Shown one piece after another: positions 56,879 to 64,000 of a DNA stretch of 64,000 nt (its first letter is position 1; every line of letters starts with the position of its first letter). The notes under the pieces were generated by a model. The model did no database searches and was not told the origin of the DNA. It was given only the letters and a program-made list of their open reading frames with translations. Position numbers and translations under genes: made by a program. This stretch comes from a virus (Duplodnaviria > Caudoviricetes), in IMG/VR virus record IMGVR_UViG_2901146262_000001, positions 67,961-131,960 of that record; one strand, written 5' to 3'.

Positions 56879-56919
56879 CATTATAATATATATATAAGGG
56901 TTGCATTATCGCAGCCCTT
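56859..56919 (+). promoter_or_regulatory. SigA-type promoter with operator-like motif and 5' hairpin before dnaE
   Basis: TTGACA-17-TATAAT (56859-56887); hairpin AAGGGTTGC-ATTATC-GCAGCCCTT (56896-56919). Confidence 0.8.
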
Positions 56920-56939
56920 CAATTTTAAAGAAAGGGGTA

Positions 56940-59900
56940 ATGTACTTGTGCAATGCTTGCGATACAATAGGTAGTCAACCAACTAAATTTGTAAATCTAC
57001 ATGTTCATTCTTGCTATTCATTGTTGGATGGAATGAGTAAGGTTGAAGACATAGTTGAAAAAGTTAAGTCACTGAAGCAATCTAGCTTCGCCATAACGGA
57101 GCATGGAAATGTGTTCTCTGCTGTCAAGGCTCATAAGCTTGCAAAACAACATTCTTTGAAGCATATATATGGGATAGAATTTTATGTAATAGAAGACAGG
57201 TTTGTTAAAGATCCTAAGAGAAAGTTTTATCATCTAACTGTTCTTGCTAAGAATGAAAAGGGCAGGGTAAATATTAACGAGTTGTCATCATTAGGTTACA
57301 TTGAAGGATTCTACTCAAAGCCAAGAGTTGATCATCAGCTACTCAAGGATCATAAGGAAGGTTTAGTTGTACTAAGTGGATGTATGGCCAGTGAATTTCA
57401 GCAATCTTTAGCTGGTGGCAAGATAGGTGATGGAGACATTGAAATAACATCATCAAATATTGAAAAAGCCAAGGGGATAGCAAGATTCTACAGAAGCATA
57501 TTTGGTGAAGATTATTACTTAGAAGTTCAGTCTCACTCAGACTACAGACAACAAAAGTTGAATCGTGCAATTACAGACATATCTAGAGATTTAAATATTC
57601 CAATTGTAGTTACAGCCGACTCTCACTATGCCGATGAAGAAGATTTTGACTTGCACGGCATCTTTATACAGATTGGCCAGAATAGAGAATCAGGAGAAAC
57701 GTATAAAGATGGGCAGTTACAATCCGAGAAAGAAGCAAGGCAATTGTTGAAACCTGCACTGACAGATGAGGAAATTGATGAGGCAGTTAGAAACACATCA
57801 GTGATAGCTGATAAGTGTAATGTTAATTTGCCTTTATCTGCACCTATCATACCTCACATTGAGACACCCAAAGAATTCGAATCTGAAGCAGACTACTTGA
57901 AGCATCTGTGTGTGAAGGGGTGGAACAGGCTTAAAATAAATAAAAAGCCGAATAGGGATGAGTATCAGAAACGACTACTGTTTGAATTTGATGCTATTAC
58001 CAAGATGGGATTTGAGGGGTACTATCTACTGGTTGAAAGTTATGCAAACTCTGTTAAACGAAGAGGAATTGCAAGAGGTAGTGGTGGAGGAAGTCTGGTC
58101 GCATATTTGACCAATATCGTAAACATAGACCCAGTAAAGTATGGCCTTTACTTTGAGCGGTTCATTGACGTAGGAGCTTTAGACTTGTTAGAGCGTGGAG
58201 AGATGACCAGAAATGACTTGAAGATACCGGACTTTGATTTGGACTTTGGCAGAGAAGATAGGGATGTAATCATTGATTTTATCATCAACCGTTACGGGGA
58301 AGATAAGTTTGTTTCATTGGGACAATTTGGATACATATGGGATAAGACTGCGATCAAAGATGTTGGTAAGGTTATGAAGATTCCATTTGGTACAACTAAT
58401 AAAATAACTAAACTACTTGAAGAAGATACAATAGAAGAGGCAATCGAAGATGGGAGACTGAAAGAATACGAAAAAGAATATCCTAAACTATTCGATTACG
58501 CTAAGAAGATAGCTGGCACACCAAAGAGTTTTGGAATACACCCTTCCGGTAAAGCTGTAACAATCAATACTATGACTGACTATACTGCTGTTGGCAAAAA
58601 GGATGAAACCTTACTATTCCAAGGAGATATGCATGATACAGATGATCTGGGTATAGTTAAGATTGACATACTTGGATTAAGAACAATTGATGTAATGCAT
58701 GACACATTAGAATTGATAGGGAAAGATGAAGATTATATAGCTCCACAAAATTTAAACTTTGAAGATGAGAAGGTTTTGCAGGTATTTAGAGATGGGAATA
58801 CAGCCGGAGCCTTCCAATTCGAGAGTAAAGGAATGCAGAACACTCTAAGGAAGATGCAGCCGAATGGATTAGACGATTTAGGAGTAGCAAACGCATTATT
58901 CAGACCCGGAAGCATGAAGTTTATCGATGATTATGTAAGAAGAAAAAATGGAGAAGAGAGTGTCACATATCTTAATGACGATGTGAAACCCATTCTTGAA
59001 GTAACATATGGAATAATTGTATTCCAAGAGCAATTAATTGAGATTGGCAGATTGGCAAACATGAAAAATCCAGACTTATTGCGTCAAGCGACTGGAAAAA
59101 AAGATGCTAAACTGATGGCTAAGGTAAAACCAGAGCTAGTCAAAGGATTGGAAAACAGGGGTTGGGATGATGATAAGATTAATGAGTTATGGGATATAAT
59201 GGTAGAGTTCTCAAAGTACTCATTTAACAAGTCTCATTCCTTTGCATATGCCATGATTGCATATATGACAGCTTTCTTGAAAACTTACCATCCTAAAGAA
59301 TTCTTATGTTCATTATTGAATTCCTATATCGATGGAGGAGGTCAAGACAAATACGATGATATTGAAAAGATATTTAATGAAGCTAAAAGATTAAATGTAA
59401 ATATAAGGCTTCCAATTGGTCTTAGCGAATCTAATGACAGGTGTTATATAAAAGAAAATGATGTAGTCTATGGAATTCATTTAATAAAAGACTTGAATGC
59501 TGAATCAGCTAGAGATTTACATAGTCTATCGGATAATCACTATGACACATTCACAGAATTGCTTATCGACCTAGTTGAACATACCGCAGTAAAAAAGAAT
59601 CATATAAGTCATTTAATTAAATTAGACTTCTTTAAAGAGTATGGAGAGTCAGAGAGACTTCTTGCAATATATAACATGTTCCAAAATGGAAAAATGAAAT
59701 ACTTAAAAACATATGTAGATAAAACAAAAGTAAAACGTAGAGAATTATTGTTGGAATATGAAAAAGAAAATGGTGATATTATTAAATTTCCTACTAATGA
59801 AAAAATAATGTTTCAGAAAGACAAGTTAGGATTTGCTTATACAACACTAGATGTCCCACCATCTCATTGTGTCATTGTAGGAATCAATGATAAATACACT

Positions 59901-60122
59901 CCTATATGTAAGTTCTATCAGATTAAGACAGGTAAAGAAATTTCAGCAAAGATAAAAAAGAAAACTTTTTTCACCAATCAAGGTGAGCTGTGTTCTGTAG
60001 GTGATTACATAGAAATAAGAAATACATTCAAGGACTTCAAATGGCGTAAAGGTGAGAGTGGGTTTTACCAAGACGAGTCAGAACAGGAGCTGTTTGTAAG
60101 TAGTTTACAACACATTAAGTAG
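56940..60122 (+). CDS. dnaE: DNA polymerase III alpha subunit (YorL-like)
   Basis: LHVHSCYSLLDG PHP domain, ARGSGGGSL, PDFDLDF, KIDILGL, YSFNKSH. Confidence 0.96.
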   Translation: MYLCNACDTIGSQPTKFVNLHVHSCYSLLDGMSKVEDIVEKVKSLKQSSFAITEHGNVFSAVKAHKLAKQHSLKHIYGIEFYVIEDRFVKDPKRKFYHLTVLAKNEKGRVNINELSSLGYIEGFYSKPRVDHQLLKDHKEGLVVLSGCMASEFQQSLAGGKIGDGDIEITSSNIEKAKGIARFYRSIFGEDYYLEVQSHSDYRQQKLNRAITDISRDLNIPIVVTADSHYADEEDFDLHGIFIQIGQNRESGETYKDGQLQSEKEARQLLKPALTDEEIDEAVRNTSVIADKCNVNLPLSAPIIPHIETPKEFESEADYLKHLCVKGWNRLKINKKPNRDEYQKRLLFEFDAITKMGFEGYYLLVESYANSVKRRGIARGSGGGSLVAYLTNIVNIDPVKYGLYFERFIDVGALDLLERGEMTRNDLKIPDFDLDFGREDRDVIIDFIINRYGEDKFVSLGQFGYIWDKTAIKDVGKVMKIPFGTTNKITKLLEEDTIEEAIEDGRLKEYEKEYPKLFDYAKKIAGTPKSFGIHPSGKAVTINTMTDYTAVGKKDETLLFQGDMHDTDDLGIVKIDILGLRTIDVMHDTLELIGKDEDYIAPQNLNFEDEKVLQVFRDGNTAGAFQFESKGMQNTLRKMQPNGLDDLGVANALFRPGSMKFIDDYVRRKNGEESVTYLNDDVKPILEVTYGIIVFQEQLIEIGRLANMKNPDLLRQATGKKDAKLMAKVKPELVKGLENRGWDDDKINELWDIMVEFSKYSFNKSHSFAYAMIAYMTAFLKTYHPKEFLCSLLNSYIDGGGQDKYDDIEKIFNEAKRLNVNIRLPIGLSESNDRCYIKENDVVYGIHLIKDLNAESARDLHSLSDNHYDTFTELLIDLVEHTAVKKNHISHLIKLDFFKEYGESERLLAIYNMFQNGKMKYLKTYVDKTKVKRRELLLEYEKENGDIIKFPTNEKIMFQKDKLGFAYTTLDVPPSHCVIVGINDKYTPICKFYQIKTGKEISAKIKKKTFFTNQGELCSVGDYIEIRNTFKDFKWRKGESGFYQDESEQELFVSSLQHIK

Positions 60123-60509: not shown

Positions 60510-61079
60510 TTGGCTAAAAAAATAGATTATGGAAAACTATTTGAGGAAATGTTTCAAAGCAGTAGCGAAAATCAAGGCCTATTCAATTTTAGAGTAAGGG
60601 ATGTTAATAGGATGGCATTAAAACCGGGGTTCACTACCCCAAAAAATAAATATGATTTCATTCTTTACAATCAGCCATTTTTATTTCCATTAGAGCTGAA
60701 GTCAACCAAAGAGAAGTCCTTTAGCTTTAGAGGTGAAAATCCAAAGATTAAGCAACACCAAATTGATGCTCTGACAAAAGACAATAAACACAATGGTGTA
60801 ATTGGCGGATTTATATTCAACTTCAGAGAACCAGAAGAAAGAGCCTTTTTCGTCCACATAGAAGATTTTAATAAATATACGCGAATAGCCGAACAAAAAA
60901 ACAAAGGCGTATATCAAGGTAGGCTAAATGAAAAATCAATTCCATTACATATAGTTGAACAAATTGGGGTTGAGATAAGAAGCATAAAGAAGAGAACACG
61001 CTATACATATTTCATTAAAGAAACATTAGATAGATTAATTGATAAATATGGAGGGGAGGATAAAAATGAACTACAATAG
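60510..61079 (+). CDS. recU: Holliday junction resolvase RecU-like
   Basis: GKLFE, YDF, LELKST, IKQHQI motifs. Confidence 0.8.
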   Translation: MAKKIDYGKLFEEMFQSSSENQGLFNFRVRDVNRMALKPGFTTPKNKYDFILYNQPFLFPLELKSTKEKSFSFRGENPKIKQHQIDALTKDNKHNGVIGGFIFNFREPEERAFFVHIEDFNKYTRIAEQKNKGVYQGRLNEKSIPLHIVEQIGVEIRSIKKRTRYTYFIKETLDRLIDKYGGEDKNELQ

Positions 61080-61203
61080 ACCAATTAAAGGAAGTGTTAA
61101 ACCATCAAATAATACGAGTGAAGAATCAATAAATAAAATCAAAGACATATTAGTTAACTTATCAATTGATTACATAAAAAATAATAGAAATATTACCAAT
61201 TAA
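61066..61203 (+). CDS. 45-aa protein, candidate recombination directionality factor
   Basis: RBS GGAGG; MNYNRPIKGSVKPSNNTSEESINKIKDILVNLSIDYIKNNRNITN; immediately upstream of the integrase. Confidence 0.5.
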   Translation: MNYNRPIKGSVKPSNNTSEESINKIKDILVNLSIDYIKNNRNITN

Positions 61204-61235
61204 TAGACAGGATTCTTCTTGTCTATTTTTCTTTT
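61202..61235 (+). terminator. Intrinsic terminator ending the early operon
   Basis: AATAGACAGGA-loop-TCTTGTCTATT followed by TTTCTTTT. Confidence 0.8.
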
Positions 61236-61247
61236 ATATGCGATAAT
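61219..61247 (+). promoter_or_regulatory. Possible integrase promoter
   Basis: TTGTCT-17-GATAAT with TG extended -10. Confidence 0.4.
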
Positions 61248-61294: not shown

Positions 61295-64000
61295 ATGTCA
61301 GAAGAACAAATATATGGAGTGTATATCCGAGTTTCTACAGATCAGCAATTCTCTCAGGGTGACTCAGTAGAGATGCAGACTAACTTAGCTAAAGAATTTG
61401 TTAAAAAAAACGGTGGAGTAATATATGGCGAACCTTATATAGAAGGTGGAGTCTCTGCCTCAAAGACAAAATTAAAAGACAGAAAGAAATTGATGGAATG
61501 CTTGAATGATGCTAAGACCGGATTGTTTAATAATTTAATAGTTTATAAGAGGGACAGACTGGCACGTAAGACAGAAGATTCATTAGCTATTAGAAGTATG
61601 CTAGAGTCTGCTAATTGCTCCATCCACTTTACTGCATCAGGAGAACAACAGATGGATCTAAATGATCCGTACTCTAAATTGATGGAGAATATACGATCAT
61701 CTTTAGATGAAATAGAATCTGCTCAAATTTCCGTTCGCGTTGGAGATACGATGTTTGATAAAGCTAAAAGAGGAGAGTTCTCTGGTGGTAATGTGACATA
61801 TGGATATCAAAACAATGATGGAATGTTAACTCCTATTGAATCTGAAATTCCCATTATAAAGGAAGTAGAAGACTTATATATGGAAGGATACGGAAAATAT
61901 TCAATAGCGAAATGGCTAGAAGGACAAAGTATCAGAGGGAGAGGAAAGCGTCACTCCAGAGCAACAAAGCTAAAACAACATAAGCGAAGTTCGGAAAAGT
62001 GGACTATAGATAACATAGATGCAATATTATTTAACAAAACTTACTCAGGCTATCTATTGTATAGGAAGAAGAACACAGATGGGGAGTTTGAAACTATCTG
62101 TGTTAAGTCGGATCAGATTGAATCAATTAGAAGTGAAGATACTCAGAATAAGATTGACTTAATACGCAAACAGAGGAATGAATCCAGAATGCCAGCAAGG
62201 AGATATAATACTTCATTCTTATTAACAGGTATTTTGGTATGTGGAGAGTGTGGACAAGAATACGCCTCACGAACCGTTACAAAGAAAAATGGAAAGAGAT
62301 ATTCTTATTATGTATGCAAAGGTAGAAGCGGAAATCACAAAGTTCATACATGTAAAAGTAAAGCATATAAAAGAGAAATATTGGAACAGTTTGTATTAGA
62401 AGAAGCAAAGATGTATTTGAGAAATTTTATTGACTCCAACTCTCACGCTAAGATTAAGGAAGGACTTGAGGAAAAAGACGAGACTTTAAGTTACCAATTA
62501 GATGAAGTAGCTCGACAGTTGTCTAAAGCACAAAAGGATTTTCAGTCAATTAGCAGATTGTTATTAGATTTAGACACAGAAGATGATATGTACGAAATGA
62601 TGAAAGAGATGTATCAGGAGCAGCAAAAAGAAGTTCTACTCAAAATGAACAACTTAAAAAAGTCCAAAGAAAAAATAAAAGATGAGTTAGATGTTCAAGT
62701 TGAGGAAGAGATAAATATTAATGATGTAATAGATCAGCTAAAGGATTTTAATAAAATAATTGAACATGCACCTACTCATACTCAGAAACAGCTATTGGAG
62801 AACTTATTTTCCAAGATTGAAATCGATGGAAAAGGAAATGTATCATACTCCCTAACATTTTCAATAGAAGGCAACAGTGCTACTGTAGGCTTTGGATCAG
62901 TAGGTGAGGTAAAAGACGATGAGGAAAATGGTGTTATGTTTATAGGTGGCGTAGGAGACACGACAACGCTTGTTTTAGCGCCGTTAGTAGCCTCGTTAGG
63001 TGTACCACTGGCGAAAATGAGTGGGCGAGGGCTCGGTCACACAGGTGGGACGATAGATAAGCTGGAATCTGTTCCGGGATTCCATGTAGAAATAACGAAC
63101 GACGAATTCATTGAGCTAGTAAATAAAAATAAAGTAGCCGTAGTAGGTCAATCAGGCAATTTAACACCAGCAGATAAAAAGATCTACAGTTTACGTGATG
63201 TTACAGCAACAGTCAACTCTATTCCATTAATCGCCAGTTCGATTATGAGCAAGAAAATTGCCTCAGGCGCTGATGCGATTGTTTTGGATGTAAAAACAGG
63301 AGCAGGGGCATTTATGAAGGAACTTGGCGATGCTAAAGCTTTAGCAGAAGCAATGGTTTCTATCGGAAATCAAGTAAATCGAAAAACGATGTCGGTGATT
63401 TCTGATATGACGCAGCCACTCGGCCATGCAATTGGGAATGCGTTAGAAATCAAAGAAGCTATAGACACGTTACAGGACAAAGGTCCCGAAGATCTAACCG
63501 AATTATGCTTGACACTGGGAAGCCAGATGGTTGTTCTTGCAGAAAAGGCGGGGAGCATAGAAGAAGCGCGAACAGTATTAAGGGAAAACCTTACAAACGG
63601 AAAAGCGTTTGAGCATTTTAAAACCTTTATCAGGTCCCAGGGTGGCGATGCCAACGTTGTAGATAACCCTGAATTATTGCCGCAAGCAGCTTATCAGGTG
63701 GAGTTACCGGCAATGTCGTCTGGTACCGTAGCAAATATTATTGCTAATGATATGGGTACAGCAGCAATGATGCTAGGCGCAGGTCGGGCCGATAAGGACT
63801 CATCAATAGATCTGGCTGTTGGCATTGTGCTGCATAAAAAAATAGGGGATCCGGTGAAAAAAGGGGAATCCTTATTAACCATTCATGCCAATCGGGAAGC
63901 GATTGAAGAAGTAAAAGAAAAACTATATGAAAGTATTGAGGTTTCCGATTCAGTCGTTCAGGCCCCAACGTTGATATATGATACAATAACAAAGAAATAG
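61295..64000 (+). CDS. Large serine recombinase (aa 1-550) fused in frame to the C-terminal 351 aa of host Pdp
   Basis: YIRVST catalytic Ser, DRLAR, recombinase domain, [12 protein letters not shown] zinc ribbon, coiled coil; no stop before GGVGDTTT. Confidence 0.93.
62920..62970. other. Prophage right attachment junction; crossover near 62943-62947
   Basis: Protein switches from phage-like ENGVMFI to the Pdp motif GGVGD where KHST is expected; sequence becomes more C/G-rich. Confidence 0.8.
62945..64000 (+). pseudogene. pdp: 3' part of host pyrimidine-nucleoside phosphorylase, split by the prophage
   Basis: [52 protein letters not shown]; roughly the first 84 codons are missing. Confidence 0.95.

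Follow-up and report, generated by a model that had tools for sequence, protein, structure and literature searches.

A prophage junction within a large serine integrase gene and the probable shedding of a C-terminal domain on integration into host pdp

This report concerns a 64,000-nucleotide stretch of viral DNA (Duplodnaviria; Caudoviricetes), positions 67,961 to 131,960 of IMG/VR record IMGVR_UViG_2901146262_000001, which corresponds to G000:C1:470956-534955 (contig C1 of genome G000). We call this whole stretch the window, and positions given without a prefix are window positions on the (+) strand. We consider it probable that the last open reading frame (ORF) of the window spans the right attachment site (attR) of a prophage of 132.7 kb, a distant relative of Geobacillus virus E3, that was integrated into the host pyrimidine nucleoside phosphorylase gene (pdp) by the phage's own large serine recombinase (LSR). 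In this interpretation, the phage attachment site (attP) lies in the part of the integrase gene (int) that codes for an interdomain linker, a helix-turn-helix (HTH) tail is shed from the integrase upon integration, and the Pdp sequence acquired in its place is a passenger.

The chimeric frame at the right prophage end

The frame that opens at 61295 is 901 amino acids (aa) long, and its first stop is the last codon of the window (based on the ORF list). It can be divided into the following parts.

61295..64000 (+): chimeric ORF in which the integrase (prophage form) continues into the 3' part of host pdp (ORF list; five Pfam domains)
61295..62884 (+): LSR core, complete, approximately residues 1-530 (Pfam, PHROG and PDB matches)
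62885..62944 (+): linker codons on the phage side, approximately residues 531-550; putative P arm of attP, with the left inverted-repeat arm GTTATGTT (inverted-repeat search; model of relative P0001)
62945..62967 (+): 23-bp core of attL and attR, coding GGVGDTT(T), with the putative crossover dinucleotide GA at 62957-62958 (exact repeat)
62968..64000 (+): 3' part of host pdp, chimera residues 559-901 and the stop (PF00591, PF07831; contigs of runs X2, X3 and X5)

The LSR core is made up of a catalytic domain, a recombinase domain and a zinc ribbon with a coiled-coil insert, so that all of the domains that define an LSR are present. The catalytic domain, with its serine nucleophile, is identified by Resolvase (PF00239, residues 9-161, E 3.1e-27), followed by Recombinase (PF07508, residues 183-292) and the four-cysteine zinc ribbon (Zn_ribbon_recom, PF13408, residues 309-370). 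Residues R12, V13 and S14 are invariant across 29 aligned sequences, as are the zinc-ribbon cysteines C316, C319, C341 and C353. The coiled-coil insert appears as paired long helices at 379-466 in the AlphaFold model of a relative (P0001). The recombinase matches PHROG 95 “integrase” (E 1.2e-94), and its sequence matches in the PDB are the TP901-1 integrase (catalytic domain) and the C-terminal domain of the A118 integrase (residues 245-450).

Beyond the junction, the frame continues as Pdp, with Glycos_transf_3 (PF00591) at chimera residues 551-771, covering profile positions 11-252 of 253, and PYNP_C (PF07831) at residues 812-883. An earlier interpretation made from the letters and ORFs only (the sequence-only reading) had claimed that the recombinase is unstopped before the junction, giving a 901-aa frame in which codon 551, at 62945, begins the Pdp motif GGVGD. 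The ORF list and Pfam bear this out and the coordinates agree. It had also attributed 351 residues to Pdp. The in-frame Pdp stretch is real, but the first eight of these residues (GGVGDTTT) are coded by the core and are common to both forms of the integrase, leaving 343 that are exclusively of host origin. As it had noticed, the Pdp part does not include the KHST loop; based on Pfam, the entire N-terminal helical domain is absent from the chimera as well.

The left prophage end and the reconstructed attachment sites

The left prophage end was found by searching the whole genome for the Pdp N-terminal domain. The missing part of Pdp is ∼70 kb upstream of the window on contig C1, which places the left end (attL) outside of the window and the two prophage ends 132.7 kb apart. 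Here, a frame of 219 aa (C1:400943-401602) consists of host Pdp residues 1-93, which hold the complete Glycos_trans_3N helical domain, joined in frame to a 126-aa phage tail. It sits behind the genes for phosphopentomutase (deoB) and purine nucleoside phosphorylase (punA). The tail, coded at C1:401222-401599, is the native C-terminus of the integrase. Its DNA has 126 open codons in the phage frame and, because the frame shifted by one base is full of stops, this openness is not a matter of chance.

The 23-bp core occurs as a second exact copy at C1:401198-401220, and the two copies bound an element of 132,679 bp with a G+C content of 34.7% (vs. 38.6% for the genome). A genome-wide search allowing up to four mismatches returned a single further site, on contig C10, with 19 of 23 positions identical. 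This site (G000:C10:99602) reads GGVGKTT and probably resembles the core by chance, as part of a P-loop-like motif.

When the prophage ends are joined in silico, the products are an intact 435-aa pdp (containing attB, the bacterial site) and a 684-aa integrase (containing attP). The reconstructed attP has imperfect dyad symmetry (at best 16 of 25 positions, centered on the GA of the Asp codon), with inverted-repeat arms GTTATGTT and AACATAAC, and the best value for attB is 12 of 25. We infer that crossover occurs at this GA (62957-62958). Thus, the placement of attP within the integrase gene by the sequence-only reading was well founded, as was its expectation that the native C-terminus would be found across attP, at the other prophage end. 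Rebuilding attP from both ends yields a free-phage integrase of 684 aa that includes the 126-aa C-terminus, and the 675-aa integrase of phage E3 has the same motif and tail. The proposal that the integrase has two state-specific forms holds at the sequence level, where the integrase reads as 684 aa in the free phage and 901 aa in the prophage. What had not been foreseen is that there is a second chimera (Pdp'-HTH, at attL), that the part lost from the integrase is probably an HTH domain, and that a phage pdp replaces the host gene.

Given these ends, the sequence of events would be as follows. The phage LSR would have integrated the genome at the phosphate-loop codons (GGVGDTTT) of host pdp. 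Integration splits int, yielding Int(1-558)-Pdp(94-435), of 901 aa, at attR and Pdp(1-93)-HTH tail, of 219 aa, at attL. All of the known catalytic and site-binding domains are kept on the prophage form of the integrase, which should thus still be able to excise the prophage together with a directionality factor. The Pdp extension would simply be carried along. Loss of the HTH tail would be the consistent effect of integration, and the tail would act only in the free-phage state.

Evidence that the junction is a genuine integration site

We considered the possibility that the junction is an assembly artifact, or that it was made by another phage recombinase and the run-through of the LSR frame is a coincidence of position. 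We judge this to be highly improbable. It is the case that the whole junction is present in only one public run, which may be the source of the assembly. However, contigs from three runs of three different studies (X2, X3 and X5) match the window from exactly 62945, with zero to two differences, and the 30 letters that precede this point in those contigs are identical to the left flank of the core at C1:401198. These contigs represent strains with an uninterrupted pdp, that is, with an intact attB, in all three of the non-source runs. Thus, attB as reconstructed exists exactly, in independent data, and a misassembly (which the sequence-only reading had named as something that would undo its claim) is excluded. 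In addition, four other genomes or proviruses have this junction, with the two genes joined at identical codon positions, and the attL side is seen in three. On these grounds, an assembly artifact was ruled out.

As for the involvement of a different recombinase, ORFs of the prophage match two tyrosine integrases of E3. One (C1:428564-429577) is a homolog of GP28 (64.7% identity) and the other (C1:451146-452204) of GP148 (28.9% identity). Against a role for these in making the junction, the linker of the LSR tracks the target, in that a GGVGD linker goes with a downstream pdp and a different linker (in L018) goes with the lack of a pdp after int. Further, the in-silico attP shows a partial dyad of the kind expected for serine integrases, and the junction is recurrent. 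Based on its position and on this covariation of linker and target, the serine recombinase probably made the junction, and we rejected a tyrosine-integrase origin.

Other lysogens and the origin of the frame relation

Fusions at attR that are in frame were found in Siminovitchia (L010), in a member of the Paenibacillaceae (L011, which is the same as IMG/VR provirus L016), in a Clostridia metagenome-assembled genome (L012) and in an E3-like provirus (L017). This answers a question raised by the sequence-only reading, namely, whether other pdp-targeting recombinases keep the frame. Paenibacillus pini (L009) has an int frame that shifts and terminates ∼130 nt short of the junction, with junction codons like those of the others; this is a frameshift or a sequencing error, not an out-of-frame integration. 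In all three of the further genomes that show the attL end, Pdp' is in frame with the tail and a full pdp follows (the attL frames are 251, 235 and 230 aa). Two IMG/VR proviruses (G246 and G247) had no match to the Pdp N-terminal domain, probably because the provirus calls end short, and they are outside of this count.

In two of these further genomes the core measures 24 bp and 17 bp, respectively, and the value for Paenibacillus pini is confounded by a 41-bp identity between phage and host pdp. This exact 41-bp match between the phage pdp and the 3' part of the host pdp (L035/L037 vs. L009) is far above expectation for genes with ∼57% protein identity and may reflect gene conversion or strong codon constraint.

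The cores of different lineages differ at synonymous positions, so each phage matches the DNA of its own host. Both junctions are in frame because int and pdp pass through the core in a common reading frame. Since the two int parts share a frame, as do the two pdp parts, the two junctions must be in frame together or not at all. Accordingly, the frame relation seems to be a single character that was inherited by the whole pdp-targeting lineage. The sequence-only reading gave an in-frame join a one-in-three chance of being incidental; this holds, but it applies once, to the ancestor of the lineage, and not to each lysogen. There is a plausible selective reason for keeping the frame, in that ribosomes would avoid early stops in the AT-rich, out-of-frame DNA at attL. 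With attL in frame, ribosomes that enter from the host operon would reach the start of the phage pdp, favoring expression of the replacement enzyme.

A free-phage relative and the replacement pdp

In a phage search that returned 633 matching records, the best match to the recombinase is Geobacillus virus E3 (GVE3, NC_029073), with 45.7% identity over residues 4-538. Among the best 30 of the 633, E3 alone exceeds 30% identity, and all are below 60%. The E3 integrase (GP56, 675 aa) has GGVGDTTT at the same position as the prophage integrase and a tail that aligns with the prophage tail, and the core is identical at 19 of 23 positions to the same place in E3 int. GP56 is followed, with a 4-nt overlap, by GP55 (432 aa), annotated as a “putative pyrimidine nucleoside phosphorylase.” In E3 there is a RuvC-like gene (GP57) upstream of GP56 and convergent lysis genes are downstream, and the same layout is seen at the two prophage ends. 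More generally, 34 of 255 mechanically called prophage ORFs match E3 (tblastn), in colinear order. These comparisons indicate that the prophage is a distant relative of E3; the two differ in host, and their pdp genes are 52% identical.

A review (PMC8303945) that summarizes van Zyl et al. 2015 (Arch Virol, PMID 26123922) describes GVE3 as inserting at a 23-bp duplicated site and inactivating the host pdp; it puts attP “within the gene” and the phage's own pdp downstream of its resolvase gene. Another source (PMC13245101) mentions that attL and attR of GVE3 possibly yield chimeric proteins. Thus, the use of pdp as a target, the 23-bp site and the possibility of chimeras are already in print for GVE3, of which the sequence-only reading was unaware. 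All of the features of the GVE3-type module are found in the present case: an integrase of ∼680 aa with the core, a phage pdp directly following it, and a duplicated core of ∼23 bp in host pdp. What appears to be added here is the probable HTH nature of the shed domain, the location of attP in a predicted disordered linker, the single frame relation, the recurrence in several lineages of Bacillota and the old phage pdp lineage.

The complete phage pdp (431 aa) starts 18 nt after the stop of the tail, behind a GGAAAGG motif; a ribosome-binding site and an ATG thus come after that stop. No other intact pdp is present in the genome, and the phage pdp occupies the place of the host gene behind deoB-punA; a pattern scan revealed no terminator-like site from punA through pdp' and the tail to the phage pdp. 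Its identity to host pdp is 48%. In a small tree, four host pdp genes group apart from five phage pdp genes (support 0.996), which argues for an old phage lineage of pdp and against its recent acquisition. The five phage copies all have GGVGDK.. at the att position, and the core match is only 14 of 23 positions, which would keep the phage pdp copies from being targets themselves. In the relative L018, whose linker does not carry the Pdp motif, int is not followed by a pdp. A search of 50,697 phage records found such a pdp in one annotated complete phage, E3; the 21 remaining matches are to bacterial records or to contigs without annotation.

The integrase family and the position of attP in a linker

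Using integrase residues 1-558 as the query (E≤1e-20), we recovered 33 homologs, which were sorted by length and alignment as follows.

25 of 33: homologs of 657-725 aa, with the tail
3 of 33: longer homologs, with the tail and an additional zinc-ribbon-like stretch (P0019, P0030, P0033)
3 of 33: Pdp fusions of ∼900 aa (P0016, P0018, P0023)
2 of 33: short homologs (P0022, P0032)

The C-terminal tail is homologous in 28 of the 33, and 16 of the 33 have GG[VIL]GD at residues 536-563. Other homologs have different sequence at this spot, flanked by blocks that can still be aligned. No integrase homolog was detected in 245 genomes of the same family (E≤1e-40), and a scan of metagenome contigs returned two loci only. 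Two of the ∼900-aa chimeras (P0016 and P0023) are named “thymidine phosphorylase” in public records, a misannotation that hides prophage junctions. In three to four relatives of 767-829 aa (the longer homologs and L022 3887-6376), the stretch after the tail has a second Zn_ribbon_recom match and ends in a strand-like motif.

In the AlphaFold model of P0001, which is full length and 65% identical, residues 519-566 have pLDDT (predicted local distance difference test) values <50 and are without secondary structure. This stretch lies between the last strands of the zinc ribbon and the well-folded tail, and GGVGDTTT (residues 548-555 in P0001) falls inside it. The att core is thus predicted to be coded within a disordered linker. 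The linker sequence varies among relatives and, given its predicted flexibility, the protein presumably tolerates whatever sequence the target dictates.

The tail and the possibility of a regulatory switch

Modeled with 25 relatives, the 126-aa tail has a pLDDT of 87.7 and is predicted to form a long helix followed by a compact helical domain. In a structural search against representatives, nearly all of the top matches are HTH proteins of the XRE/Cro-C1 type (Z 5.0-7.3, 63-83 residues aligned), and there are weak Pfam HTH matches in relatives (P0012 to HTH_26, at 22.9 bits with a cut-off of 22, and P0026 to HTH_19, below cut-off). We therefore have moderate confidence that the tail is a divergent XRE-type HTH domain.

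Searching the tail against 1.84 billion representatives returned six matches, two of which are weak and unrelated (P0036 and P0037). Another, P0035 (160 aa), begins with 38 residues that match positions 330-367 of 387 of a sodium:dicarboxylate symporter (SDF) profile (E 2e-5, below the curated cut-off), and the remainder is an in-frame tail like that of relative P0006. P0035 looks like an in-frame attL chimera at a second target, an SDF symporter gene.

Given a tail of this type, it could be that integration is a regulatory switch (a sharper version of the idea in the sequence-only reading), with the full-length Int-HTH and the tail-less form differing in activity, directionality, stability or autoregulation, and one or both chimeras being specific to the lysogen. 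For example, Pdp'-HTH might bind DNA under the control of the host nucleoside operon, or the behavior of Int-'Pdp might depend on its Pdp part. The retention of the tail by 28 of the 33 relatives and its confidently modeled, HTH-like fold would indicate a function that integration removes from the integrase, and attP has the same position in the linker across relatives with differing linker sequences. Also, the attL chimera is in frame at two target genes (pdp and that of the SDF symporter) and joins the complete Pdp helical domain to the HTH. We take this helical domain to be the dimer interface in pyrimidine nucleoside phosphorylase structures; if so, the attL chimera would be laid out like a dimeric HTH regulator. 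Counting against a switch are the frame relation, which was inherited rather than reinvented in each lysogen, and the extension after the linker, which appears to be variable in provirus forms. On balance, we think a switch rather unlikely.

There is some precedent for an att site inside a gene being used in this way. Mycobacteriophage BPs reportedly has attP inside its repressor gene, and integration is said to remove a C-terminal degradation tag. In both cases attP is in a coding region and integration alters the C-terminus of a protein. In BPs, however, it is the repressor that is changed, by loss of a degradation tag, whereas here an integrase would lose a folded 126-aa domain predicted to be an HTH. 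The analogy, which was drawn in the sequence-only reading, is apt as a way of working but does not extend to membership in the same family, since here the split gene is the integrase.

Assessment of the preferred interpretation

The interpretation that we prefer is an attR formed by the phage's own LSR, with a shed HTH tail and a passenger Pdp extension. The sequence-only reading had suggested that the Pdp part could alter the behavior of the integrase or make excision responsive to pyrimidine metabolites; on present evidence, a specific role of this kind is less likely than not. The reasons are that the frame appears to have been inherited once, that a provirus-form relative (L023) seems to stop ∼8 codons after the linker, and that the frame of L009 is broken.

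Several points weigh against this interpretation. The comparative basis for regarding the Pdp extension as a passenger is thin, because L023 has only a candidate att site and L009 may contain a sequencing error. The prophage encodes the two tyrosine-integrase homologs noted above, which complicates assignment of the junction to the serine recombinase. The only RNA run on the region (X3) carries the uninterrupted pdp of a non-lysogen and is uninformative for the chimera; the int part is uncovered in X2, X3 and X5, which thus do not address transcription of the chimera. With regard to the tail, the structural match is middling (Z up to 7.3), a Foldseek search against the PDB gave the same kind of protein and nothing at E≤0.001, and the tail encoded by this prophage has no significant Pfam or PHROG match. 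Finally, if P0035 is what it seems, two of two targets are in frame (1 in 9 by chance), which hints weakly at selection on the frame.

Features around the junction

The features in the window upstream of int are as follows.

60510..61079 (+): Holliday junction resolvase gene, 189 aa (PHROG 843, E 3e-26)
61202..61227 (+): terminator-like hairpin of 11 pairs and then a T run, closing the upstream gene before int (pattern scan, consensus match only)
61219..61247 (+): promoter-like site for int, TTGTCT, 17 nt, TG-GATAAT (pattern scan, consensus match only)

The promoter-like site scores 9/12 with an extended -10 TG, and a ribosome-binding site (AAGGAGG) precedes the int ATG at 61295. Just past the window and directly after the pdp stop, there is a bidirectional host terminator (C1:534960-534987; again a consensus match only, from the pattern scan). 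An int transcript would start at the promoter-like site at 61219-61247 and end at this host terminator.

Farther upstream, the window contains a phage gene resembling DNA polymerase III alpha (56901-60122, 1073 aa, 26% identical to E3 GP96), and just upstream of it are homologs of thymidylate synthase and dihydrofolate reductase (C1:526434-527833). Together with pdp, these make up a sizeable phage set of genes for nucleotide metabolism.

Comparison with known systems

Integrases with a site in their own gene, which is split by integration, are known as the suicidal tyrosine integrases of archaeal elements (SSV1, pTN3 and pT26-2). The present case is similar in that respect. It differs because the archaeal enzymes are tyrosine recombinases that are left as inactive halves, and here a bacterial serine recombinase appears to be cut after all of its known domains. 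As the cut comes after all of the catalytic and site-binding domains, the prophage fragment is probably still active and the products are not two dead halves. Judged from its domains, then, this integrase is not a member of the archaeal suicidal group and is like it in part only. According to a 2021 review (PMC8371274), recombinases that disrupt themselves are found in archaea only, and bacterial self-splitting recombinases seem to be little known.

Another useful comparison is with SprA of SPbeta, described in part of PMC5499854 as the serine integrase of a large (∼130 kb) Bacillales prophage, with its gene at the prophage end and its site inside a host ORF. In the SPbeta SprA/spsM type, the site is beside int and the host gene is restored by excision; in the case described here, the site is inside int and the host gene is replaced by a phage copy. 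Nor is the prophage integrase close to SprA, given that only E3 was above 30% identity among the best 30 of 633 phage matches.

Open-access literature queries on serine integrases with attP in their own gene returned an unrelated synthetic-biology paper and reviews of mycobacteriophages and other topics only. No study of functional consequences was found, although the queries were short and cannot show absence from print.

Implications

If the interpretation above is correct, the GVE3-type family would be a bacterial case of a self-splitting serine recombinase in which the enzyme core is spared, and a simple system with a detachable C-terminal domain. Its integrase, attP and replacement gene together form a compact module, which is aimed at the best-conserved codons of a housekeeping gene and would compensate for the damage that it causes. 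For serine-integrase engineering, the coding of attP within a linker that tolerates it may prove a useful design feature. There is also a consequence for annotation, in that chimeras of ∼900 aa go by the name of “thymidine phosphorylase” in public records.

A more speculative idea, which we think unlikely, is that domain shedding is programmed. Here, attP would be placed in a disordered linker so that the HTH could tune integration or its own expression in the free phage and, once shed, could be re-expressed from the promoter of the target gene as a lysogen-specific regulator. If so, the fusion of the Pdp helical domain to the HTH, under the control of the nucleoside-catabolism operon, would link prophage behavior or superinfection to host metabolism, and the archaeal self-splitting integrases would have in this family a bacterial equivalent that is not suicidal.

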